Below, piece after piece: positions 1 to 20,000 of a stretch of DNA of 20,000 nucleotides. Numbering within the stretch: position 1 is the stretch's first letter; each line of letters opens with the position of its first letter. Under the pieces are notes generated by a model. The model searched no databases and was not told the DNA's origin. It was given only the letters and a program-made list of their open reading frames with translations. Made by a program: the position numbers and the translations under genes. The stretch comes from Streblomastix strix (Eukaryota). The stretch lies in contig SNRW01000001.1 of NCBI GenBank assembly GCA_008636045.1, forward strand, positions 54,191 through 74,190, read 5' to 3'.

Positions 1-3000
1 AATTTTCGTTCTGTTTTAACATGCGGAAGTTAGTGATCGACTAGATGATTATATATAAAACTCTCCAATTGTCTCTTTATTAGTTGTGATTTCAATATTT
101 CTTAGAATTGGACCCCAATTAATCACTACATTAATATATCTTTCATCAGTGTGACCTCTAACTTCAGCAACAAATAATAACATTTTATCGACTACTAATG
201 GATCATTAGAGAACCTACTAGTGTCATATATTAGTGTTTTACATCGATTTTGATCAGTAATCTTTTCAATAAGTTATGCAGGCATATATATTATATGATT
301 TGTGTATGGATTTAAGGCATTCGGTTCACTGCTCATAACACTAGGATATTAGCTATGAAAATCTAACTAAACTACATGAGTCATCACATTATCTGAATAT
401 ATTGAATACATACATTTATTTTTTTAATCAAATTCGAAATGATTAATTCTAGGTTCTCCTGCAATATTATATCTATGCATCACATTTGATATACCTCCAG
501 TGATTCCTTTACGCAATAATTGATATCCTTCATCACTCGTTAATGTCATGGGTAATTATTTAAATAACGCATATTTCTTTAACTATACCATTTGTTTCAT
601 CTAGTTTTCATCACGAATAGCTTTACATACATTGCAGTACAAACAGCATGGAAGTACGTTATCTTTTGAGTGTCCTTTACTATTATCTATTCTATCTAAT
701 GTGGGCCTATTTTTCCATGTGAATCGTGCATCAAATATGTGGCATCGTTAATTCTTGAATATTTCTTTAAAATAATCATAATCATCAATTGTTACATTAT
801 TGCTTGAATTTCTATTCATTTTATTATCTTATTCAATATAGCTTTCCACTTTTGCTCTCCAATAATTCTATGTGATATCGATCAATTTGTCAGTTGATTC
901 ATAATTGTAATTACCTTTTATATCAAAATCACTATAACATATAGCATATTTGATCGCATTAGCGCATTGTGACATAGATATATTAGGTAGCATATCAACC
1001 TTGTATTTGAACATTAACTCAATCAAGTAATCTATAGGTTCAATAAGAACTCTAGTATCTAATATATTGTAGTGCTTCAAGTAATCCCATCATGTTTTGT
1101 GCTTTGCTGCTTCGACTAGGTACTCTTTGTACTTTACTTCATTAAGTTTCTTATTTCGTAATTTATTATCAAATGTTTCGATCGGAAATGGTTCAATTTT
1201 ATTCAGTTCATTCATGTAATTATTAGTGTTTATGAATTCATGAGGAAATCTACCATTTTTATAAGTCCCATTTCCAAAATCTCTTACAGCATCCTTTAAT
1301 TTATTTTACATAGAATAGATCTTAAAATCAACGAATCTCAAATGAATGCTTGAAGACTAATGCTTCACAATTATCTATTTTGCGATTGTGCTTGATCCCA
1401 AATACTTAGAGATAGGCCAATTCTTTGATTTCAAATTCTTAAACAACACTGACGCATCAAATTTTGCTTAATTGAACCCAATTACAGGTAATTCAAAATA
1501 TTATGGGATTGTTTCATCTATATATTTATTATCTTTCTTAACTTATTTCGCTTCTTCAAATAGCTATTCTAACCACTTATCTAAGAAATCATCTGTTCGA
1601 ATATCGTAATAAAATGAATGGATATCGCTAGCAAATTTGACAGTTGAATCAATAGCGTATGGAATTAGAATTGCAGTAACTTATGAACTATCACCGAATT
1701 TTTCATTAACTTTATTTTCTAATGTTTCAATATCATATGTTATGTAATATCTTGTAGGCTTGAAAAAATGAGTTAGATTGTTCGCTAATAGATACTTATA
1801 AGTCTTGTTAGATAAAATATGAGGAACAAACGGTTTTGCAAACTTCTCTAAGATGACTTTCTTAACTATTTTTCCATCATTCTTTTGACATTTTTTCATA
1901 TGATTTCTCATCTGTACTTATAGATTTTTATCATTTATTCTGAATGCTTACCTATGGCATATATTACAGTAACGAAATCCAGTTAATGCTTCTACATCAG
2001 ATATATACATAATGTGAGCATTAATTCCATCATTAATGAATAAGATATTGAAGTGCTTATCCAAATCATTAGCAGTATAATTTTATGTTAATTCATAATG
2101 TTGTGGATTGTCTTCAAACGTATGCATGTGCACGTTAACCTGTTCTTTTTTAATGAAGTTATCAATATCTCCTACGAAATCGAATCCTTAATAATTATCT
2201 TGAAACCCCACTCCATTTACTCTTGAAAATATACGCTTAGCTTCTGCGATTCTAGAACAATCCATCCAACGTTTATCCTTTGAATTAGGCATTGTGATGA
2301 ATGAATACGCTGTCCAGAAACATAGATTCACCTTATAATCTACATAATAAATCTCTTTTCGTTTAATATGCTACTTTAATGATGGAATAGCCGCACCTGC
2401 TAATGGATATCGAAAAATAAAGAGCATTATTTAGAATATTGATACTATTTTTTCATGAGTATCTGTGTTAGTTCTCTCTTACATGGTTCCTATAACTGTT
2501 CGAAGATACTACTTGTACATATTAATGTTATCTCTAGATCGTATTTCTAATGGAGCTCTTCTTTCTGAACTTGCATCTACTAGAAATATATATTTGTATT
2601 TAATTGTTTAATCTTCATTATTACCATTAACACTTTCAATTAACACACCAAAATCAACAGCTAGTTTAAACACATTACCTTTTTCTTTATCATATACGGA
2701 GTCCAAGTATTTATCTAAATCGGCTAATGAAGCAATATTACTATAGTATTATTTTGTTGGTTTGATTTAATTAGTTGATGATAAATTATACGATTTGTAT
2801 GAAAGAGTGCCTGTTTCTTTATTGTATCGATTTAATGCAATATTCTTAATCCTACTGAATTTCGCTTCATTCTATATGTCACATAGCATAATCACATCAT
2901 TATCCGTATTTAGATGATGATACACATATTATTCATGAGTTCTAATGTAATCGCTAATTTCTTATTAGTCTGTTTCGAATAGTATATCGATGTTCATATC

Positions 3001-3525
3001 CTCCACATTATGAAATTCATCTAACAATGATGCTTATCTTGCTTATCTATCTTCATCTTATTTTCTCCTACGTTCTTCTATCTTTTATGCTCTTAATTAA
3101 TGCTGCTATTATTTATATCGTTCTAGATCGAAAATATCATCTTCATCTAATTGTTCTGGATCGAACTCTTCTCGTAATTCTTTTATGTCTAATTCACGTT
3201 ATTTTTATAATTATTCTTATTCCTTTTATATCTATTCTTCTCGTATTAACCGTTATTATTCCCGTTAATTGAACCATTTTCGAACACGATTTTATATAAC
3301 AGTTGCTGCTTTGGATTGTTCCATATATATATTACGTGAAACTACTGCATTGATCGCTTATTCCACAGCATTAACGTTATTACGTTAACCATAGAATCCG
3401 ATCTTTGTCAGTATAGAACTTAGCGCTGATCTCTTCATATTATTACTCGCATTTATGTCTGTATTTGGATCGTATAATTAGAGTAATCGATTAACGTCTG
3501 CAATTGATATCTTTATTCAAGTCAT
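1..3525 (-). pseudogene. polB: Protein-primed family B DNA polymerase (N-terminal/terminal-protein region, vOTU-like domain, Zn finger, 3'-5' exonuclease, HNH insert, palm); 3' part runs off the window
   Basis: One frame from ATG 3525 to about 61 with TAR=Gln. Motifs: ExoI YDIET (1723-1737), ExoII GFNQAKFD (1456-1479), GRFPHEF, ExoIII YNILD (1057-1071), RKGITGG, motif A DFHSQYPSVM (334-363). In-frame TGA at 3517-3519 and 1090-1092; probable +1 frameshift near 57-60. Confidence 0.92.
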
Positions 3526-3566
3526 TTCGTTGATTCAAAAATAAATTGTCATATGATTGATTATTT

Positions 3567-4877
3567 TCAATCCTATTACATCGCTCCTTATCTTCTTCCA
3601 GCTTCATTTATGGCTGCAGGTGCAACTTAATTATATATACGATCAATTTCGGTTGCAAATGCTTCTTCATCAGTGTTAGTTTATGTAAAATATGCCTATG
3701 CAATTTATTTCTTAAATGCAATTGCACCTTATTTTATATATCATTATTTTCCCAATTTTATTGTGGATCAATTATCTATAAGATTTCTCTTACAACTTCT
3801 CTCCATGTAGCTTATGCAGCAGTAACATACTAGCCTCCCCCCCATTTTTCTATTTCATTTGTTTTTCTAAATTCTTAAGCAATTGTAGGAATGTAAGTAG
3901 CCAAGAAATGATTTCTTGGAACTAATTATTAGAATTATTTCATTTTATAAGAGCCATTTTTATGTTATGCTCCAACTGGAACTTCCTTACCTTACATAAA
4001 ATTGAAGAATTTATTATTGTTACGTTATCTTTTGGTACACCAGCTATATATTATTCTCGATATTTATCATATTTACTTTCATCTTTTGGAATGTATCCTC
4101 CGATTGAATATAACTTTCCTTTATTGGTATGAACAGTTGCGAATTCAGGTAATGGACCTTATCCATCTGGATCAACCATCCGCATAGTATATCCTTGCAT
4201 GCCTTTTTTACCAGAAATATATGCTTCACCTGAAGGAATAGTTCTCAATTCTTAATTATATTTCATATCTTTATGCAGGTTTTGTTTATTATTTAGTATA
4301 CCAATTAATGCTTATAGTTATTTTGCATTTATTCCTGTTGTATGTTTAATACGACTTTCAGCAAGCTTCTATTTTCTAACATTTTTCTTGTTTAGTTATT
4401 CTTCGGATAATGGAGTTTATTTTTTCAGCAAATATTACGCGAATCTTGAAAGTTACGGTTATGCTTCAGCCATGTTTTGGTTTTGAGTAAAAGTTGGTTA
4501 TCGTATTTATTCTATTGCATATTCTCTTTATTAATCTATTGGTTACTCTTGTGGTTACTTTTATATGTTCCTAAACTGATTATTCAATTATTGATCTAAT
4601 AGTTTATGGCGCTTCCGCTATAGTTCTTTATTCAATTTAATCAGCTAAATTCCAATATTTTTCTTAAATTCATCGAAATGCTTATGCTGTTTCGTTCAAT
4701 ATAGTTAATTATTCTTATTATCTTTAACGACCTTTATGTTTATGCTAATTGTATATTTGTTCTTCTGCATTACGTAATTCATTAAAGAATTCATCATTAT
4801 CGCTTGCAATTTACCGAATATCTCTAATTTCATTGTTTAACTCTTCTGCACTCACTTGTTAATAACAAAACGTTCAT
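3567..4877 (-). pseudogene. Hypothetical viral protein (~430 aa, Gln/Glu-rich N-terminus), frameshifted
   Basis: Protein-like segments (QVSAEELNNEIRDIRQ...; YTMRMVDPDGQGPLPEF...; FATEIDRIYNQVAP...QQD*) join only with frame changes near 4560, 4020 and 3728, plus a TGA at 4670-4672. Start codon uncertain. Confidence 0.55.
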
Positions 4878-4906
4878 AAGTGATTGAAATAATTAATAAT
4901 AACCAA

Positions 4907-5680
4907 ATGTCTTTAACTAGTTACGTGAATCAATTACTTAGTAAACAGAAAACTAATAAACATGAAGTATAATCTATGATTCATAAAGAGCTCAATTTCT
5001 CATATAATTCTATCAATCTTCTTATAGGATAGCGAGGAAACGGTAGTTCATATAACATATTCAAAGAGCTAATCAAATTGAGTTGGTTACCTAATTAGTG
5101 TTACACGTTATTCATATATGTTATTGATAGCAATAATGATATCACATATATGATGATGAAAGATTTAATAACTATTTCAACAAAAATAGTACCATATTCA
5201 GAAGTGAATGAAACATTAGATGAACTGATTGAATGTAAGAAAGCGTATGATGAACTAAATGAATATAAGTTAGAGAAATAAATGAAAGAAGAATCTAAAA
5301 TAGCTATATTATCTCACATTGGAGCAAAGGATTTTTCTATCAAATTTCCACATACAATAGTGTTGTTCGATGATGCAATGAGTATATTCAAAAATAAGAA
5401 CAATCCACTATACAAGAAGTTATTCAAAAATAGATAGCCAAGAATTACTTATTTCCTATGTTTGCAAGATATTATTGGGTTAGATGCTAGCATTAAATCA
5501 AACGTTGATACTGTATATTTTTTTGGCGGATTCAATAGATAAAAATTCAATTTATTCTTCTATCAATCATCGCTACTGTTGGATAAAGAAACATTATGGA
5601 ATGAATATGTGTAATTAGGTAAATGAGAAGCATTATTGGTATAATATAGTAATGATATAATTATTGTACGAGTTATTTGA
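4907..5680 (+). pseudogene. A32/FtsK-HerA-like genome packaging ATPase
   Basis: ATG 4907. Walker A-like LIGQRGNGSS (G at 5027; Lys replaced by Ser), Walker B IVLFDD (5357-5374), Arg-finger region KNRQ and YFLCLQ. Internal TGA at 5624-5626, next TGA at 5678-5680. Confidence 0.85.
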
Positions 5681-6117: not shown

Positions 6118-7001
6118 TCAATGTGCTCTCGATGAATTAATAATAGCTTATTTTGATCAATAATTTAATCTAATTAGTTTTCTTAGAATGTGTAATGAGT
6201 CAACCATATTTTCACGTCTTATCTTTATTATAAAACTTCTTTAATCTTTTCATTAATTGTCATAGCAATTGGTAAGTTATCAATAAATAATAATGATTCA
6301 CGAAGATATCGTTCTTTTTTTGCGGGACATAGATTTTTTCTATTAATTCTTCTAACTCGTATTGTTATTTGATCTTCATGTTAGTCTTCATGTTATTAAT
6401 CTTCACTAACCTCTTCAACTATCAAGATATATATTTTTTCTTTACCATTTGGAACAGCTCTTGGAGCTAATTATCGAACTTATTAATTCAAATCAGTTAT
6501 TCTATCCGATAATGTATCAGTAACTTCATTAATAACGTTATGGAATTGATCTGCGATTGCCTATGTTTTATCAGCATCATGTTCTGCAATAGTTGTTTCG
6601 TTAATTTTGTCCATAATATCAGTTACAATATCAAGATATTTGATAGATGTCTTCATTCAAATTATGCTAATTAATTTTTTATATATATATGTTCCTCTGA
6701 CTTCTTTAATATATTCATTAATCAACTAATATTCAAGTTAGGGGGGCTGGTCCTTTTTGGACGCAGCCGATTTGTCTTGGATAAATTTCTTATATTCCCT
6801 ATACATCTAAGTTACCATTATTTTCTTCAATTATTTGTTAGTATTCTCTTACTCATTAATCAATTGAACTAGTTTGGTAGCGTTAACATAACCATCAATA
6901 TCTCTTATCAATATTTCGAAACCATTATAAGATCCAATTGTAAAGCTCTCGTTGTTCGAAGTTATTTTGCACAATTCGGGTGTTGCTGTTTCTGTAGTCA
7001 T
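6118..7001 (-). pseudogene. KilA-N domain protein with coiled coil and a DUF3627-like C-terminal region
   Basis: ATG 7001. KilA-N hallmarks ILIRDIDGYVNATKL and VRGTYIY..LI. In-frame TGA at 6657-6659; probable 1-nt frameshift near 6150 before ...IINSSRAH*. Confidence 0.85.
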
Positions 7002-7075
7002 TTCTGATTAGTAAAAGAGTTTGGTTAGTAAATTGAAACTAATGATTATTAGTTAATATACAAAAATAATCTCAA

Positions 7076-7468
7076 TCAATATACAAGCATTAAATCAAGT
7101 ACGAATTTTATATCTGTTTATTTTACATTCTAATTCATATTATTCTTGAACCAAATCAACATACTTCGTTAATGATTCATTTATTAAAATTCATTAATTG
7201 TTCTAATTTCATTACAAAAACCTACAAAACTATCGTAATATTATTCTTATTATACTAACGATGAGTGAATGGATACAATATCTGGAGTATTAAGTATCTT
7301 GTATTACAAGAATATTATTTTTCGCTCATTGTTTGAATTAACAAAATCAAAGGGTAGCTGAACTCGATATTTCCCTTCATCATATATGCAATCATCCTAC
7401 ATTATCATAAAGTGTTTTACATTCTGAGCTGAAGTCCTATCATTAATTATCGCACGATTATAAGCCAT
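7076..7468 (-). CDS. 130-aa beta-rich protein, possible minor capsid (penton-like) protein
   Basis: Intact frame MAYNRAIIND...VQLPFDFVNS...IWFKN...IKFVLDLMLVY*, directly downstream of the capsid gene. The function is inferred from position and strand pattern only. Confidence 0.55.
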
Positions 7469-7497
7469 TTTATTACAGAAATAATATTCCATCAGTA

Positions 7498-9220
7498 TCA
7501 AGCAGTTACTAATCCAATAACCTAATTAAATGAATGAGTTGTATCATATATGCAAGATCTTCCATCTCTAGGACTGAATAGCCAGAAATTATCGTGAACT
7601 GTGCACAAAATTGGAGGAGGTGGATGTTTTCCATTAGTATCAACATTATAGTAGGTATCAATTGCACCTTAGTATAGTGGTTATCCTCTTAGTTCAATTG
7701 AAGCATTTTAGTTCTGGGTGTCTAATCCATCAAATGTTAATGCATTATTGCTATTACGTTCACATTAAAGAATGATGAAAAATGATGTATAATCAGTTAC
7801 AGAATTATATTTTCTAGTTGAATTTCCTGTTGGAGTTGTTAATGAATCTTCATATTCATCTGTAGCTTCGAATATATTATCGAGATTATTTGCAGTTATC
7901 TATATTGTGAAGAATTATTCATTAAGTGTATTCATGGGAAAATCTGGGAAATTTCTACTTAAAGTAGACAATTACATATTTTAATAACATGAATTTTCGA
8001 AGCAAGTAGTTTGTCTAGCGTCCTTAGGAAATAGTAAGCACATATCAGTAACGTGAGATAGCGGTATATTTTATAAAGCACATAATCCAGTAAGAGTAGC
8101 ACCACTTGGAAATGCCCATGTTTCAATACATTATGCAGGTACGATAAATGGACACGATGAATAAAATTATCGTACACGATTAAGACATTCTTGTGAAGCT
8201 TTATATACACACATATTTGCAACAGCTGCAGTAATGATATAGTTTCTTAAAGAAATTGTTACTGGTTTGATATCATATACAAGATTCTTCAACCCTGATG
8301 GAGTTAGTTCTTCAGCACGTACTCCAGTAATCAAATCAGCAGTGCATCCAATTTATGTGAACATATTTGTGTATTAGAATGTGAGAGACCAATTACGGAA
8401 AAATAGATCAATATCCCTAAGCTTATCTTGACCTGAGCTCAATAATTCATCTTTATTAATTGTATAATATCTAGTCATCGAAACTACTGGATCAATTTGG
8501 TAGAATATGAATGCGTTTGGATTAATTTTGAATTTAATTTTAATATCACCAAACAGACTATTAGGATATTCAGAGAATGCTGAGAAAATGAGTAAATCAT
8601 CAAGAGGAATTGAAACAGAGAAATTAACTGGCATAACATATGGTGCAGCAGTTTGTGGAGCAAGTGCATCTGAAATATCCTTGATTCTAAGATATTTTCC
8701 ACAATGTGATACATCATCTTTACGTACATTTTCATAGAGTAAATGAACTATTCTATTATTATTTTTCTCTGATTTGGGTTTAATAGTATTATAGATAAAT
8801 TATTCGGTGGTAGAATCATTCTGAAGAGATCCATCGATTGTCTTTCCTCGATGATATAGAGTATATTCGCGAATTAGTTATGCAGATGATTTTAGTCCAA
8901 CAAATATAAATGTTCCAGCTCTATAAGATTCGCTAAATTAATCAAATTTATTATCGAACAATAGATTCATTGTAAAATCAAGAGTAATGAATGAATTTTA
9001 TATCTATGTTACGTCATGATCTGGATCGGTCAAACTGATAATAACTTCCTTGTCAAATAATGATGGCATTTATGATTCTGGCCTGATCTCTTTGATTGAA
9101 AAATGGTGTTGTCTATCATTCTAAAATGGTAGAATTGCGAAGGTCTTTAACAAATTCTCGATTGTTTCCAGATTTTGTTGTGTTGTTAGGCACACGTGTC
9201 TTCATAAGTTGGCGATTCAT
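7498..9220 (-). pseudogene. Probable major capsid protein (double jelly-roll type, ~570 aa)
   Basis: Uninterrupted TAR=Gln frame from about 9189 to TGA 7498 (IFVGLKSSAQLIREY, VSIPLDDLLIFSAFSEYPNSLFGDIKIKF, PPPILCTVHD). ATG 9220 is out of frame, implying small indels in the first ~12 codons. Size, beta-rich pattern and context next to the ATPase fit a capsid protein. Confidence 0.75.
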
Positions 9221-11301: not shown

Positions 11302-13695
11302 TCATTTAACCTATGTAGCAGATGCACATTTAATGTATGTTTTAGTTGTTGATTTACAAGTAATAAGTCCAATTAAATAAGTAATTGATAAATAGCCCCC
11401 TTTATCAACAGTGTGATTCGGAAATGGTATATATGTTATAACAGCTACATCATCCTAAACTAAATAATCAGAATTAAATGTTCCCATATTATAATTTCCT
11501 CCATTAGCGAGTAATGAAAATATATAAAGATTTCCAATTCTAATTAATTTAAATTATATTACTGCACCATTCATATTACTAAATGCAGTTGATGACAAAT
11601 CTTCAATCCCACCAAATGTTAATAATAATCTATCTCCACCACCTGCTAGAAGAACTGATGTATCATCTTTACCTGTTTTCACAAATCCTGTAGCACTAAC
11701 ATTTGCATTGAATGTCTTAGTTCCAGTTATTGATTGAGTTGTATTTGTAATAACAACATTAGTTAGTTTAGCGTCAATTTCTGACTAAGACAAATATGTA
11801 TTAGCTACAGAATCCTATGTTTCATCCTGATAGTCAAATGGACTTACATATTTTAATCTTCCAGTAATGGTTTATTAAATTGAACCTTCCAATCTTACAA
11901 ATTTATTATTTGCTTCAGTTTGTGAATTAGTTTATGTTTTTGTATAATAATTTGATAAATCAGTTGGTGCACCAGCGAATTCAGATATTGGTTTTGTTCC
12001 ACCTGCTCCAAGTAATACAACAGTATCATCTGCACCTGATTTGACAAATGATGATCCAGTAATTGTAGACATTCCATCGATAGAACTTACGAATCTACAA
12101 GCATTATTGAATGTTTTATTTGCATTTATTGTCTATGAAGTACCTAAGGTAATATAATTAGATTGTTCGGTTGTATCTGCTTTCTCACCTAATAATTCAT
12201 CTGTTTTTGTTTTATTGTAATAATCAGTCAAATCAACATCTCCTACATCAACCTATGATACTAAATAATCAATTTCTGTTTTGGTATATGTTGTTGATTA
12301 ATTTGCTCTATAATATAAGAGATTATTTGTCTCACCTTTAGTGTATGAATCAATCAATTTTGTTTTATCAGCTTTCAATAATAAGAGTGCATCATCCTCT
12401 GATTTGGAAAATGAAGCACTTTAAATATCTGCAATTGATCTAACTCCTCCACCCGCACAAACAGCAAATGTATTATCATAGGTTTAAACCATGATTCCAA
12501 CTGAATGTATTGTTGTATTAAATGTCTTTTAACCACTAATACTTTGATCATAATCTGTATCAACTAAATTTTTATTTTTTGCTGGTGTTAATGTGTTTCC
12601 ATCAATTGATATATCAGTAATTGCATTACCTCCTCCAGTAGCTGTTCAAAGAGTTGTTATAACATTACTCATATCAGGTAGTTCAGTTTCTAATAATTTT
12701 AAATCAGTTCCATCCCACCAATAATCCGTTACTTCCTTATCAACAATATATAAATTATCTCCAATTACTAATTTTGCAACGTTCTCTTGATCAGTCATCC
12801 AATCATTCAACTCAACTTACGTAGAGAACACATATGCTTTTGATTTTCCAGTAGCAATATCTCTAATTTCTTATAATTTTGGTTGAGTCACTAACGAACT
12901 TACTAACATATCTCTTCCACCAGCAAGAAGAATAGATGCATCACTTTTACTCAATTTCGATACGCTGGAAACACTAATTACTCCGAATTATTTTTATCCT
13001 GTTATTGTTTGAGCTGATGTTAAATCAACATAATTCGTTAAATCGGTAACGTTAGCTTTGAATAATAAGAGAGCATCATCTTCAGATTTGGAATATGAGT
13101 CAATTATATCAGTTTTATCAGCTTTTGCATCGAGTAATACATCATCTTCTGTTTTGGAATATGAATCAATTAATTCAGTTTTATCTGCTTTCAACAACAG
13201 TAGAGCATCATCTTCTATATTTGAATAACTATCCACAATATCTGCAACATTAGCTTTCAATAGTAGTAATTCATCATCTTCTGTCTTTGTATAAGTATCA
13301 GTTTTATCTGCTTTCAACAACAGTAGAGCATCATCTTCTGTCTTGGAATAACTATCCACGATATCCGCGACATTAGCTTTCAACTGTAAGAGAGCATCAT
13401 CTTCTTATTTAGTGTATGAATCAATTAATTAAGTTTTATCTGCTTTCTCATCTAACATTGTATCAGCTTCGGTCTTAGTATATGAATCAGATTTATCTGC
13501 TTTTGTATCAAATATTTCATTTGCTTCAAGTCTAGTGCATACATCAGCTGCAGGAGCATTATTTATATTATTAATTTGATTGTTAATATTTGTAACTTAT
13601 TCAATCAAGCCAACAGTATTATGACGAACGTTTCCGAACAAAATCTCATCATGAATTATGAGCACATCTAAAGAGTGTAAGTCTGCATCAGCCAT
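11302..13695 (-). pseudogene. ~800-aa fibre-like protein with tandem shaft repeats and a C-terminal head
   Basis: Single frame from ATG 13695 to TGA 11302 with one internal TGA (12646-12648). KADK..DSYSKTEDDALLLL repeats, and QTITGxKTF...VLLAGGG modules resembling tail-fibre shafts. Confidence 0.8.
13040..13550 (-). repeat. Coding tandem repeat, 57/66-nt units (19/22 aa)
   Basis: About 8 units of KA(D/N)(K/V)xx(xx)DSY(S/T)KTEDDALLLL; further copies near 12180-12420. Confidence 0.9.
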
Positions 13696-13724
13696 TTAAT
13701 TACCAAAAATAATATAGAGTATAA

Positions 13725-14318
13725 TCAATGAATTTGTGATAGAACAGCCATTAACCCTTTATTTGCTGCTGACATTAGTTTAAACAATATATCTCCTATA
13801 TTTAATATACTAGTTATTTTACTAACTTTTTGCAAACTTAACTTATAAGAATCTCTGAGAAGATTGACTTTATCGATATCGAGAGTAAGTATATTTACAT
13901 TATTGATTGTAATATCACTTAATGTTCTAGTGCCATCGTGCATAAATTTACCACAACATCTTTCATCTTCAGTATTAAGTACAACTTAGTTTTCTACTAC
14001 ATTAAATGTATATGTAATTACTCTTATTAATTAATGTTCAGATAACATGAAATGAGCTGATTCTTTAATCATATGTTCATCTTCACTAATTATGTCAAAT
14101 AGCCATCGACATACTGATGGATCAGGTATTATTATTTCTTCAAATATGGATGATCTTCTTCTTGATCGCAACGTTTAAACTTATACTTTATCTTATTCTT
14201 TTTCAAATGGTGAATCAACTTCAACTATTGCAGGAATTATCGGAACAGATAAACGTGGAGACATTGGTTCTCTTTAAATTATTTTTTCAGATGGCGATAC
14301 TGATCTTTTCTATGACAT
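13725..14318 (-). CDS. Hypothetical viral protein, 197 aa
   Basis: Intact TAR=Gln frame MSQKRSVSPSEK...RSRRRSSIFEE...ERCCGKF...LSQIH*. TTATTTTTG lies 10 nt upstream. Confidence 0.7.
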
Positions 14319-14370
14319 TTATTATTACCAAAAATAACTAGTTGATAATCATGAATAAAATGATAAATAA

Positions 14371-15318
14371 ATGGGAGTTTTATCATTTTCATTAGTTATG
14401 GTATTAGTTAACGTATTATATGCACTTGCAGCAATAAGAAATAAACCAATGTTTGCAATAGTAATGAACATTAGTGATGTACCAACAAACATCTCGAATA
14501 TCATTTCATTTATTATTAAAAAGATGCCTCGATAAACTATAAAAATTAATCAATTTACAATCAACTTCACAACTAAATTAATATTTGAAAAGAAACTTGG
14601 AGAAAAGAAATTAATTAGTAATGATGAAACAATGTATTAAAATGTAATTGGTTCTAACATTATTGAATAAGATATATTACCAAAGGATAACATTAATGAT
14701 GCAATTGAATAACTTAAGAATAATAAAGTGCCATTAATTGGCGAATTATATTATTCATTACTTCAGAGAAATACATTTAGGCAATGTAATGTGCATGTTA
14801 GTGATAAGAATAATTCAAAAAAAATCTCTACAGCTAATGTTGGAATTTAACATGAAAACATCGATCCAAATGAACTGTAATAGCTAGTGAACTTCGCTTA
14901 TGAATACGTTGGTGAAGATAAGATAATTGTTATGTTTGCATGCTATCTATTATATGAACGCATTCATCTTCATATTGATGGAAATGGAAGAATGGGAAGA
15001 TTATTATTTCTAGAAAATATATACTAATTGCCTGATTAATTTGTTCTATTATCAAGTACATTACGATATAATAAGTATTCAAGATAAATAATGAATGAAA
15101 TATTCAAACATATCAGCTTTGAAGAAATAATGAAGAAACGCCAGATCAAAAGTGGTGATGCAGCTATATATATAGAAGAGATAAAGGAAGCAGATATGAA
15201 TAGATTTAATGAAATCATTAACTCAAATTAAAGAACTAAGCAATAATACTATACATTAGATTTTGATGATAATACTTGTAAATTAATTATTAAAATATTG
15301 AATGTTATTAATGTGTGA
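14371..15318 (+). CDS. Fic/Doc family protein (AMP transferase-like)
   Basis: Open frame of 315 aa. Fic motif variant HLHIDGNGRMGR (14965-15000), flap-like FRQCNVHV, and SNIIEQ resembling the inhibitory (S/T)xxxE(G/N) helix. Start uncertain (alternative ATGs at 14351/14360 are in another frame). Confidence 0.85.
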
Positions 15319-16565: not shown

Positions 16566-18480
16566 TCATTCTTATTCTATACCATCTTTTGCTTATTTAT
16601 TTAATTATTCTTCTTTAGCATCTTCTTTAATATCTTCATCTAACATGCGTTTATAAAATGATATCAGTTCTTCTTTCATTTTATAGATAAATTTACGTAC
16701 TCCATCAACTTATTTCTGTGTTCTTTCACATATACTTTTGATTGCTAACTAATAATTATTCAACTTCATATCTTATGGTTTTCATCCTTCAACAATACTG
16801 CATGTAACACCATCTCTAAATGATTTGAAATGATTGATAATTACTTCATCAACTGGTGATACTGATGCTCTTATTATATCTTTCTTTGCTTATGTCATTG
16901 GTATATCTCTTGGATTAAATTAACTAATATCTCTAGTCAAAAAGAATATGAATAAATTATTGTAAAAATCTTCATCGAAGCTATTGCACAAGTTAGTGAA
17001 ATACTTCAAATCTCCACGATGAACTGGATGACATTTGCATACAACATAGCGTCTATCACTATTCTCAATCTTTAATGGATAGATATTATTTGTAACAATC
17101 ATTACATTCACTATATTCTCAACTTCATGCTTAGGAACAGATTTCTCATTAATCACAAATGAATCTTCAGTAATTATTGATTTTAATTCATCCATATTAG
17201 TCATTCTTGAATCTCCAAAGTTCTTCATTTCATTCGCAATTGCTAACATCTTATTCTCGATAGCAGTATTGAACTTACCTACAAAATCATCGATATCAGT
17301 AATATTTTTTAGATGAATATCCTGCTAATAATTCACATAAAACATTAGTAAAAACATTCTTACCTATTCCTTATAATCCTTTAAGAATAATAGCTGTTTC
17401 AGTTTTCTTTCCAACATTTTGCACAATGAATGCAAACAAATTCAATAAATATTCATGCACTCGTTCATCATTTGCTGAGATTGTATCTTTCATTAACGTT
17501 AGGAATTATTCTATTTTTGTCTAATTCACTTCATCTAGTTGAGTATATTTGAATCCCTAGAATACACTGAATATCTTTTGGTTATCGCTAATAAATTTTA
17601 TACCTAACTTTTCGAATAATGAATGATATTGTTCTAATGCATCAATCCCAGTTATATGTTACTTTCCATCAGCTCACAATCTAATTGAACGTAATTAATC
17701 ATAGATAGCTGACTTACTCTTATAATTTATTACATTTTTCGCAATGAAACAATTGTATTCTTTGATGATGTAACACCATCCATTCTAACAAGGTATAATA
17801 CTTATTATTTTTAACAAATTTTATGCGACTAACTCTAATTTATTCTAATATTTTCCATTTAATGCTTTGCTTGATACATCCTTTAATGTGAATGAATCAA
17901 TCAGACCAATTTCATTCTTCTCAATCGATTTCACTACTGTTTCTATCTTCTATTATTTCTTTGATTCATATGACTTAATGATTAATGGTTTAAGTGTAGA
18001 TTCATAGTAATCTTTGTTATGTAATTTAATGATTTTCGTTAATATCCATGCATTAGCTTTACTGTAATAACATCCTTTTCTTTCGCTCCAATGTTCACTT
18101 GCTTTAGCTGTTAAATTATTATTCATCTATACTGTTGAATATGCTGCTTCTTTATATTGCTCGCCTAAATGTTGTAATCCATTAAGTCCCATGAATAAAG
18201 ATAGTAAGCTAATTTCACGCTCTAATGCGTTTGTATCATTGTGAATTGATAATCCTTTTAACCCATCAATACATGCATCTGCAATATCTTTAAGCATTTG
18301 ATCAGGAGTGCAATCATCATTAATTATGCAAAAATCTTTATCTTTTGCTGTTAAATCAAGGTTCCATTTACCAAGAATATCAAATAATGAAGCTAGATGT
18401 GTTGCATTAGACCAATTATTAAATTCTTTAAAATGAAGTATCTCTTTCTTTTGTACTCCTTTATGGGTCAATATCAACCT
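16566..18480 (-). pseudogene. D5-like primase-helicase (superfamily 3), 5'-truncated
   Basis: Walker A GLQGIGKN (17356-17379), Walker B LAIANE, motif C MIVTNN, and SDRRY. +1 frameshift in the T6 run at 17305-17310; TGA at 17674-17676 and 16782-16784. No in-frame start ATG or primase motifs upstream of about 18480. Confidence 0.9.
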
Positions 18481-19730
18481 ATATAATTCATCTTTGAGCT
18501 AATAGATACATTTAATATATTAAATTTCACTGTTTTCTGTGAAATTAATAAAATATAAAAATACTGCCTATTCATCGAGAAATTAGAATTTTTGTCAAAA
18601 AATGTTATTTTCACATTCAGATATTAAATTTCATTATAAATATAAAAACTTAAGTTAAAAACATAAAATTAATGTTTATAGTCAAAATAAAAATTAAATA
18701 AATTTCTTATTCAAAAGTTACTTGAATTGGAAATTATATAGCAGAGCTCGTATAACATCATCCGCTGTGTTAAAACACTCAAATTTATAATAATTTATCT
18801 TTAATATTTTTATATAGATAATATTCAATAAATATTCTACATTTTATATTGATACGACAGAAAAAATCATAAAATATTTTATTTTTCAAAATTTACATTT
18901 TGTACATAATCAAGTGCAACACAAATGTAACTAAATATTTTAAATATTATTTTAAACAAATATATATGAGCAAATATTATTTTACTTTACTATAACTCGA
19001 ACAATAATATTTTTACATTTTCTCGTTGATTATATAGTATATTATTATATATTTGATAAATTTTATATTGCTATATTTATTTACATATAATTATAATGTA
19101 ATATCCGACAGATCGATACCACATGGTGCGCAAAGCGAGGGATAAATGCAAAAATGGAAAGGTTCATATCCTTATACCTGGTATGTATATTATATTTTAA
19201 ACTATAAATTATTATATAATCAATATATATCTTTATTATTTAATATAATTCATTTTAATTGTTATAATTATTTACTGCAGAAATTGAGCTATGAAAAATT
19301 TTGTAAAATTTTCATTGTATCGTGGAGGTTCAGTTGTTTTATTTTATATAAATTTATACATTTTTTATTTATTTAATGTTAATTATGATTTTTGATGTAT
19401 TAATTTCATATATTTTTTATCCTGTACTCATTTTAATGAAATTTTTTATTTTTGATAAATTTTAATACAATGCACCTTATTTTATAATTTAATCCACACA
19501 AAATAATTTTCAATACTTTATTATATTTACATATTTTTTATTTGTTATAATAAATTGTTTCAAAATCGTAACGAAAAACCGATTTTAATTATTTAATGAA
19601 AAATTTTAAAAAGTGGTTTTCTCCCTGGTCAATGATTTCCGGCATATAAAACTAATTTCACGGAAAATAAAATAATTAAGTATATAATATTATTTAATAA
19701 AAACATATATAAATTAGGTCGGTTGGCAAT
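18481..19730. other. Very AT-rich non-coding spacer (probably host DNA or a non-viral insert)
   Basis: Abrupt loss of protein-like frames, with long A/T tracts. Confidence 0.55.
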
Positions 19731-19733
19731 GGC

Positions 19734-20000
19734 CCATATGTTATGCTAATAGGTTTTTCAGTATCAATTCCTCCGGATAATTTACTCATATTATCTGCAT
19801 TTTCTGAATATCCTAATAATATATTTGGTGATATTAAATTAAATTCAAGATTAATCCATGCGCATTCGTATTCGGCTACGTAGATCAAGTAATATCTATG
19901 GCAAAATATTATATAATTAATAAAGATGAATTATTGAGTTATGGTCAAAATAAACTTAAGGATATTGATCTGTTCTTCAGCAACTGGTTTCTCGCATTTT
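19734..20000 (+). pseudogene. Fragment of a second, diverged major capsid gene; runs off the window
   Basis: PYVMLIGFSVSIPPDNLLILSAFSEYPNNIFGDIKL/KFKINPCAF...KDIDLFFSNW is homologous to 8643-8377 (minus strand). 1-nt frameshift near 19842; 5' part absent. Confidence 0.85.

Follow-up and report, generated by a model that had tools for sequence, protein, structure and literature searches.

A predicted PacI-like HNH nuclease domain, most likely domesticated, within the protein-primed DNA polymerase of Maverick/Polinton-type elements

Results

A polymerase pseudogene read under genetic code 6

The stretch of DNA analysed here (the window) comprises 20,000 nucleotides of a contig filed under Streblomastix strix. 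Its GC content is 22-32% per kb, and long frames appear only when TAA and TAG are read as Gln. The window carries genes of a Maverick/Polinton-type element: a protein-primed DNA polymerase of family B (pPolB), together with an A32-like ATPase and an ORF of capsid size. The pPolB gene lies on the minus strand (1..3525) and runs off the window at position 1. Its frame is open under genetic code 6 (TAA/TAG = Gln); the standard code was rejected, as it breaks the gene into fragments. In the order of translation, we found the exonuclease motifs ExoI (YDIE, 1726..1737), ExoII (FNQAKFD, 1456..1476) and ExoIII (YNILD, 1057..1071), the RKGITGG motif that precedes the palm (493..513) and polymerase motif A (DFHSQYPS, 340..363), all on the minus strand. 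The PolB and PolC motifs fall outside the window. The closest named relatives of this pPolB are S. strix proteins (up to 88% identity), and contigs from termite-gut DNA runs map onto the same stretch. The host of the element is likely the oxymonad S. strix.

Between ExoIII and motif A, we identified an in-frame insert of ~109 residues (553..879, minus strand) resembling the HNH (His-Me finger) endonuclease PacI. The assignment rests on a structural match to PacI, a match to the family PHROG 1035 and the pLDDT of a structural model, and the borders were set by the PacI match, which spans model residues 71-179. The earlier note, made from the sequence alone, had placed an insert at about 560..900 between exonuclease and palm, close to these borders, and the coordinates it gave for the HNH core (631-744) are exactly those of the motifs. 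These comprise the first zinc-ligand pair CHIF (733..744; CxxF in the window copy, CxxC in its sisters), a D-R...H...N segment (658..696) with the motifs DRID (685-696) and GHSKDN (658-675), and the second zinc-ligand pair with an Asn, CLYCN (CxxCN, 631..645), all on the minus strand.

The window copy of pPolB is a dead gene. It is interrupted by in-frame TGA stops, one at 3517-3519 and another at 1090-1092, as well as by a frameshift near 58-77, none of which the earlier note mentions; base 1092 belongs to a sense codon in most of the sequencing depth (1681 of 1742 in run X1). Both CxxC pairs are present throughout the family (62 of 62 long homologs), and the first is incomplete in the window copy, whose second Cys is Phe (TTT), as had been read before. 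At base 734, however, every sister contig that covers the position has C and thus encodes Cys (29, 13, 5 and 4 contigs in four runs from three studies), and among 22 proteins named from S. strix the position is Cys in 19, Tyr in two and Arg in one. We therefore reject the Phe as a family feature; judged from these sister sequences, it is private decay of the window copy.

Several further ORFs accompany the polymerase gene. The A32-like packaging ATPase (4595-5623, plus strand) is similar to ORFs of loci L003 and L004 that match Pox_A32. The capsid-sized ORF (7501-9069, minus strand), a putative capsid gene with no Pfam match, and its small neighbour (7079-7543, minus strand) are shared with locus L012. 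A second, inverted capsid-like gene fragment (19731-19999, plus strand) is 81-82% like 8378-8643 and is probably the edge of another element. A fragmented D5-like helicase region was found at 16785-18594 on the minus strand (DUF5906, E 3e-14; VapE-like, E 9e-5), and an ORF upstream of it resembles the C-terminal extension of the long pPolBs P0256, P0251 and L022. Fibre-like ORFs with 66-nt repeats (K-A-D-K/EDDALLLL type) and a weak BppL_N match occupy 11305-13914 (minus strand); a KilA-N domain ORF (6660-7094, minus strand, E 1e-9) and a Fic/DOC domain ORF (14056-15315, plus strand, E 1e-4) are also present. Upstream of the exonuclease, 1888-2322 (minus strand) holds a Cys/His pair that by analogy may belong to a vOTU protease, as well as a conserved C-x2-C...H-x3-C pattern that by analogy is zinc-finger-like. 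No pair of terminal repeats was seen in the window, off which the element runs.

The insert has a predicted PacI-like fold

In the window there is one instance of a relaxed form of the HNH motif, C..[DE]R-x6-H-x3-N-x4-CxxCN, against none in 200 codon shuffles, and chance occurrence was rejected. The insert matched the phage family PHROG 1035, 'endonuclease VII', with an E value of 1.1e-11, along with four further PHROG families, three of which are endonuclease or HNH families (E 1e-11 to 6e-8 for PHROG 1035, 3322 and 3118). Pfam had no family for it at E 0.1, NCBIfam returned nothing but a spurious hit (E 0.085), and a single-sequence search of the PDB gave no match. When a family profile was used against the PDB, PacI was recovered, at an E value of only 0.057.

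The structure of the region was then predicted with AlphaFold2 (residues 1-363 after the stop, with a 32-row alignment), and the insert block displayed pLDDT values of 77-96. In Foldseek searches of the PDB with the insert model, the top matches were PacI and Gme HNH (E 6e-3, prob 1.00), with no match below E 0.001. A search against viral structures gave 13 matches at E<=0.001, the best of which is named HNH endonuclease. VIA-align superposed model residues 71-179 on residues 14-140 of PacI (3LDY) with 107 residues aligned (Z 7.6, rmsd 3.4); Cas9 HNH, Hpy99I and Cap5 scored below PacI. Two non-nuclease proteins came near the PacI score, an axonemal protein (Z 6.9) and yeast Tcd1 (Z 5.9). A Z of 7.6 for this model is middling, values below 8 being common, and is backed by the PHROG match at E 1e-11.

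The active site of PacI consists of H42, R93, Y100 and N113 (PMC3765158). When the family profile was aligned with PacI residues 91-118, the D-R pair, the His and the CxxCN of the insert fell on D92-R93, Y100 and C109-N113, respectively, the last Asn on N113. The family thus keeps the R93 and N113 positions and has His at the Y100 position, all invariant in 62 of 62 homologs; no equivalent of H42 was located. At the place of the general-base His of typical HNH nucleases the insert has Arg, as does PacI itself. Taken together, the Foldseek matches, the PacI superposition and profile alignment and PHROG 1035 bear out the HNH identity that the earlier note had read from the motif, and the structure prediction that it had proposed as a check returned an HNH/His-Me fold. 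The insert is, by prediction, a PacI-like beta-beta-alpha-metal HNH fold, and its reading as an ordinary pPolB linker is rejected.

Predicted folding of the polymerase core around the insert

Taking into account that the window copy is a pseudogene, it is of note that intact homolog genes of 1140-1170 aa exist. The model of one intact homolog, P0049 (pLDDT 89.9, pTM 0.84), aligned with ~530 of the 570 residues of phi29 polymerase (Z 20.2, rmsd 3.4-3.8; Foldseek E 7e-16), while other family B polymerases reached a Z of 11.7 or less. P0049 differs from phi29 polymerase in that the corresponding range is ~930 residues long; the HNH domain is one of the additions. This alignment leads to the prediction that the core folds with the insert in place. 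Pfam DNA_pol_B_2 was detected in 3 of 12 homologs scanned. With motifs ExoI-III and PolA-C on a predicted phi29-like fold, the family is assigned to the protein-primed family B polymerases.

Concerning splicing, the earlier note had seen no intein splice motifs, and this was borne out in the family: the junction H[NQ][CST] after the core was found in none of 62 homologs. In the model, the PacI-like fold fills 107 of the ~109 residues of the insert, leaving no room for a HINT splicing domain. A present-day intein was rejected on these two grounds.

The insert is fixed and constrained

In order to find homologs independently of the insert, residues 1000-1477 of homolog P0021 were used as query, with the HNH (909-956) left out. 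This polymerase-only query gave 106 homologs (proteins of 812-2585 aa sharing short words with the query). All of the 104 that span ExoIII to motif A contained the HNH domain; the other two do not span this region. The presence/absence check suggested beforehand thus came out in favour of uniform presence. The full motif was found in 97 of the 104; the seven incomplete ones are all named from S. strix, and the other 90 are complete without exception. A word-free search yielded 885 cluster representatives at E<=0.001. Among the 150 of these that were listed, together with the earlier homolog matches, no precise empty site was seen by eye; some of the rows show, again by eye, partial deletions with differing borders. 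Among the joints listed for sequencing-run contigs, none skips 553-879 precisely, which is a weak test as these contigs are short.

Conservation was examined in 62 long, mostly intact homologs, hand-picked after the count of 104 (34-94% identical, median 43%). All 62 have the same residues at the nine positions for zinc binding and the active site, and the four catalytic positions of the exonuclease are kept in 60. Columns conserved at >=95% make up 15% of the insert, 15-16% of the palm and 10.5% of the exonuclease, and the identities average 0.55 for the HNH core and 0.44 for the insert as a whole, with 0.40 for the exonuclease and 0.50 for the palm. Two homologs, P0267 and P0272, show neither the acidic pair of ExoI nor an ExoIII segment in the alignment and yet have a complete HNH motif.

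We then compared the tree of the insert with that of the polymerase. They have 21 of 59 splits in common (0.2 at random), six polymerase controls of equal length share slightly more (22-36), and none of the 13 strong splits of the insert tree conflicts with the polymerase tree. In the three closest pairs of loci, dN/dS was 0.13, 0.22 and 0.25 for the insert and 0.07, 0.11 and 0.12 for the palm, the insert values being about twice those of the palm. Four other pairs (7 of 21 pairs are listed) are near saturation, at 0.27-0.41 in both regions. Pairwise identities of the insert correlate less well with those of exonuclease, palm, fingers and thumb (Spearman coefficients of 0.43-0.47, against 0.58-0.71). 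Because the insert shares fewer splits, tracks the polymerase less tightly and has a higher dN/dS, some recombination is possible. On these sequence comparisons, the insert nevertheless behaves overall as a vertically inherited, constrained domain.

Active homing elements are characterized by patchy presence, empty alleles and a disjunct distribution (PMC11855218). With 104 of 104 homologs occupied among the proteins of 812-2585 aa reached through shared short words, and 0 of 13 strong splits in conflict, a patchy or mobile homing insert was rejected. The earlier note had left the choice between a domesticated nuclease and a homing-type insert; its first alternative is favoured by the occupancy, the congruent tree and purifying selection, and the mobile form of its second is not sustained. 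As fixation, invariant residues, tree congruence and purifying selection all suggest a working part of the enzyme, the insert is most likely a domesticated nuclease.

The nearest free relatives of the insert are viral HNH proteins

Outside the family, the nearest free relatives of the insert are stand-alone HNH proteins of phages and giant viruses. We fetched the best 80 of 133 viral loci; an HNH ORF (median 231 aa) was present in all 80, and no pPolB motifs were found in the fetched flanks. At the PacI Y100 position these free proteins have Tyr in 50 cases and His in 29, with one unmatched, whereas the pPolB inserts have His in 62 of 62. Scans of IMG/VR found no pPolB of the window family, only matches to the HNH segment, none with pPolB motifs. 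PacI (PDB 3LDY/3M7K) and the free viral proteins are like the insert in predicted fold, in the D-R pair and in the CxxC..CxxC-N layout, and unlike it in that they are not fused inside a polymerase and that the His is fixed in the window family. These results raise the possibility that the insert was captured once from a free-standing viral D-R-x6-[Y/H] HNH family.

Published inserts and the host range of the family

A PacI-like HNH domain has been described in the pPolB2 of Polintons from terrestrial nematodes and oomycetes (Jeong et al. 2023, Mol Biol Evol, PMC10748475). Judging by the order of labels in the figure, it sits between ExoIII and motif A, as in the window. The authors called the insert unique to the two groups, a 'unique synapomorphy', though their set included 783 Metamonada pPolB2 sequences; the main text does not mention Streblomastix. 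The hosts are nematodes and oomycetes in that study, whereas the nearest named relatives in the window clade are from S. strix (code 6), alongside metagenomic proteins; the likeness is one of architecture. Nuclease inserts in pPolB have also been ascribed to intein invasions (Krupovic et al. 2024, PMC11161782). Endogenous viruses using code 6 are known from S. strix and form a 'Metamonada group' with those of parabasalids (Bellas et al. 2023, PMC10120064), and the window is alike in holding a code-6 element, likely of S. strix. That study differs from ours in grouping elements by capsid protein, and the one 'HNH' of its main text is a label in a figure legend. It was the only paper found on Streblomastix and polintons. 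Our literature searches found no paper on an HNH domain in oxymonad polymerases, and nothing on adintovirus endonuclease VII, on Maverick DUF4108 or, since 2024, on nuclease domains of oomycete polintons. In UniRef, two S. strix fragments are already labelled HNH. The architecture is already published; what is new is a large oxymonad and metagenome clade, evidence for domestication and a wider host range.

Neither our homolog searches, which depend on short words, nor 30 clusters gave a protein with an oomycete, nematode or Trichomonas name, a result that does not amount to absence. The Atlas cluster that fits P0021 best consists largely of Parabasalia (0.93 over ExoIII to motif A, 0.89 over just the insert), and an Oomycota cluster reaches 0.83 and 0.77, short of the 0.9 mark. 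Of the 783 Metamonada rows of Table S3 of Jeong et al. (PMC10748475), 14 were covered, all from one assembly, and in these pPolB2 is 1148-1219 aa long with an integrase just downstream. The window family has a subgroup of 1140-1210 aa too. The assembly behind the 14 rows is presumably that of T. vaginalis. At locus L001, a DUF4108 gene adjoins pPolB, and we take DUF4108 to be a Trichomonas family. The lengths, DUF4108 and the Atlas cluster are leads, though not proof, that parabasalid Mavericks carry the HNH domain in their pPolB.

Some members of the family lie in other surroundings. At locus L005 (1-13736), a decayed standard-code copy adjoins uninterrupted eukaryotic ORFs of the Ras-family, UBA/ubiquitin and RRM types, a context that shows integration into another host than the one using code 6. 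Locus L013 holds a pPolB fragment with a partial HNH motif near an ephrin-receptor ligand-binding ORF (1849-2595, 4687-5370) and is either a chimeric contig or an animal context. L016-L022, P0068 and P0098 come from short contigs assigned to genomes of bacteria or archaea, which are likely mis-binned DNA of eukaryotic elements. Unusually long pPolB homologs of 1800-2500 aa were also encountered (P0064, P0068, P0276, P0289 and others); P0064 has a weak Prim-Pol match near its C-terminus (E 0.006), hinting at polymerase-primase fusions.

Discussion

We consider it highly probable that the insert is a domesticated HNH domain that is active as a nuclease in intact copies, catalysis being suggested by the conserved active-site positions. 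The fuller proposal, in which this PacI-like domain of the Maverick/Polinton pPolB also has a role in the element's own replication, is the one we favour, with a chance somewhat better than even. A zinc-stabilised HNH nuclease would be carried along by the polymerase, and its tethering between exonuclease and palm would keep it close to the growing fork. Protein-primed strand-displacement synthesis would give rise to branched intermediates such as flaps, snap-backs and junctions, and the domain may nick or trim these, with His acting in place of Tyr100 of PacI. The insert would be kept in the mature polymerase, with no excision by splicing. Since phi29 polymerase works without such a domain, a replication role of this kind is not universal.

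A different function for an active nuclease, which we regard as rather unlikely, is a selfish or competitive one: the HNH would cut the DNA of rival elements, for example polymerase genes devoid of HNH, so that the whole gene spreads by a homing-like replacement or the element prevails in co-infections. The closest fold is that of PacI, which cuts at specific sequences, the free relatives of the insert are stand-alone viral endonucleases, and lasting competition could maintain an active site. Homing nucleases usually decay once fixed, whereas this insert is as conserved as the palm, and the lack of any empty allele in 104 of 104 homologs and of strong tree conflicts likewise speaks against competition. 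On the other hand, Jeong et al. (2023, PMC10748475) report that in nematode Polintons pPolB1 gave way to pPolB2 genes with HNH or VSR, as competition would have it.

The domain might instead nick at the ends of the element for excision or integration, in place of or beside an integrase, a role to which we give little credence. The earlier note had seen no integrase in the window, and indeed none was recognised there or in the scanned ORFs of loci L003-L012 and L014. The window, however, lacks the DNA downstream of pPolB, and at loci L002 and L022 related ORFs (E 1e-6) lie directly downstream of the polymerase gene. They have no library match, and we take them, by their motif, to look like DDE integrases, which weakens the idea that the insert replaces an integrase. 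Moreover, Jeong et al. had selected their pPolB2s with HNH for an integrase close by (PMC10748475).

It is about as improbable that the domain lacks catalysis and is a zinc module for binding DNA or bracing the polymerase, aiding processivity or strand displacement. There are HNH folds devoid of nuclease activity, and their scores come close to that of PacI; the HNH-fold domain of yeast Tcd has been judged likely inactive (PMC13139853). With a median net charge of +6 the insert is basic, and it has Arg at the place of the usual general-base His, but PacI shares this Arg, and the positions of PacI D92, R93, Y100 and N113, most of which the Tcd domain lacks (PMC13139853), are invariant in 62 of 62 homologs. 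A spliced element or neutral relic is very improbable: an intein or group I intron has been suggested in general terms as the origin of pPolB nuclease inserts (PMC10748475, PMC11161782) and an ancient origin of that kind is possible, but the missing junction, the lack of room for a splicing domain, the absence of any Rfam match in 1-3600 and purifying selection oppose it as an account of the present insert.

Returning to the domesticated nuclease, its presence in an oxymonad and metagenome clade puts in question the 'unique synapomorphy' of nematodes and oomycetes. Tentatively, and with a probability that we place clearly below even, we propose that the HNH has long been a fixed part of one broad pPolB lineage, as its fourth catalytic domain, and is found across the Mavericks of oxymonads and parabasalids (perhaps including Trichomonas) and the Polintons of oomycetes and nematodes. 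Nuclease inserts in Polinton polymerases have so far been read as leftovers of inteins or introns and as markers of gene transfer. That about 100 diverged polymerases keep the insert under constraint like that of the palm points to a working part of the enzyme, and extends the design to a group of protists where it was said to be absent. The function of such domains is directly testable, as intact genes of 1140-1170 aa can be expressed. If the proposal is true, the insert would be an ancestral trait rather than the oomycete-nematode synapomorphy on which an argument for gene transfer has been built, and each of these polymerases would by itself be able to both replicate and cut, through a PacI-type active site in which His stands for Tyr.
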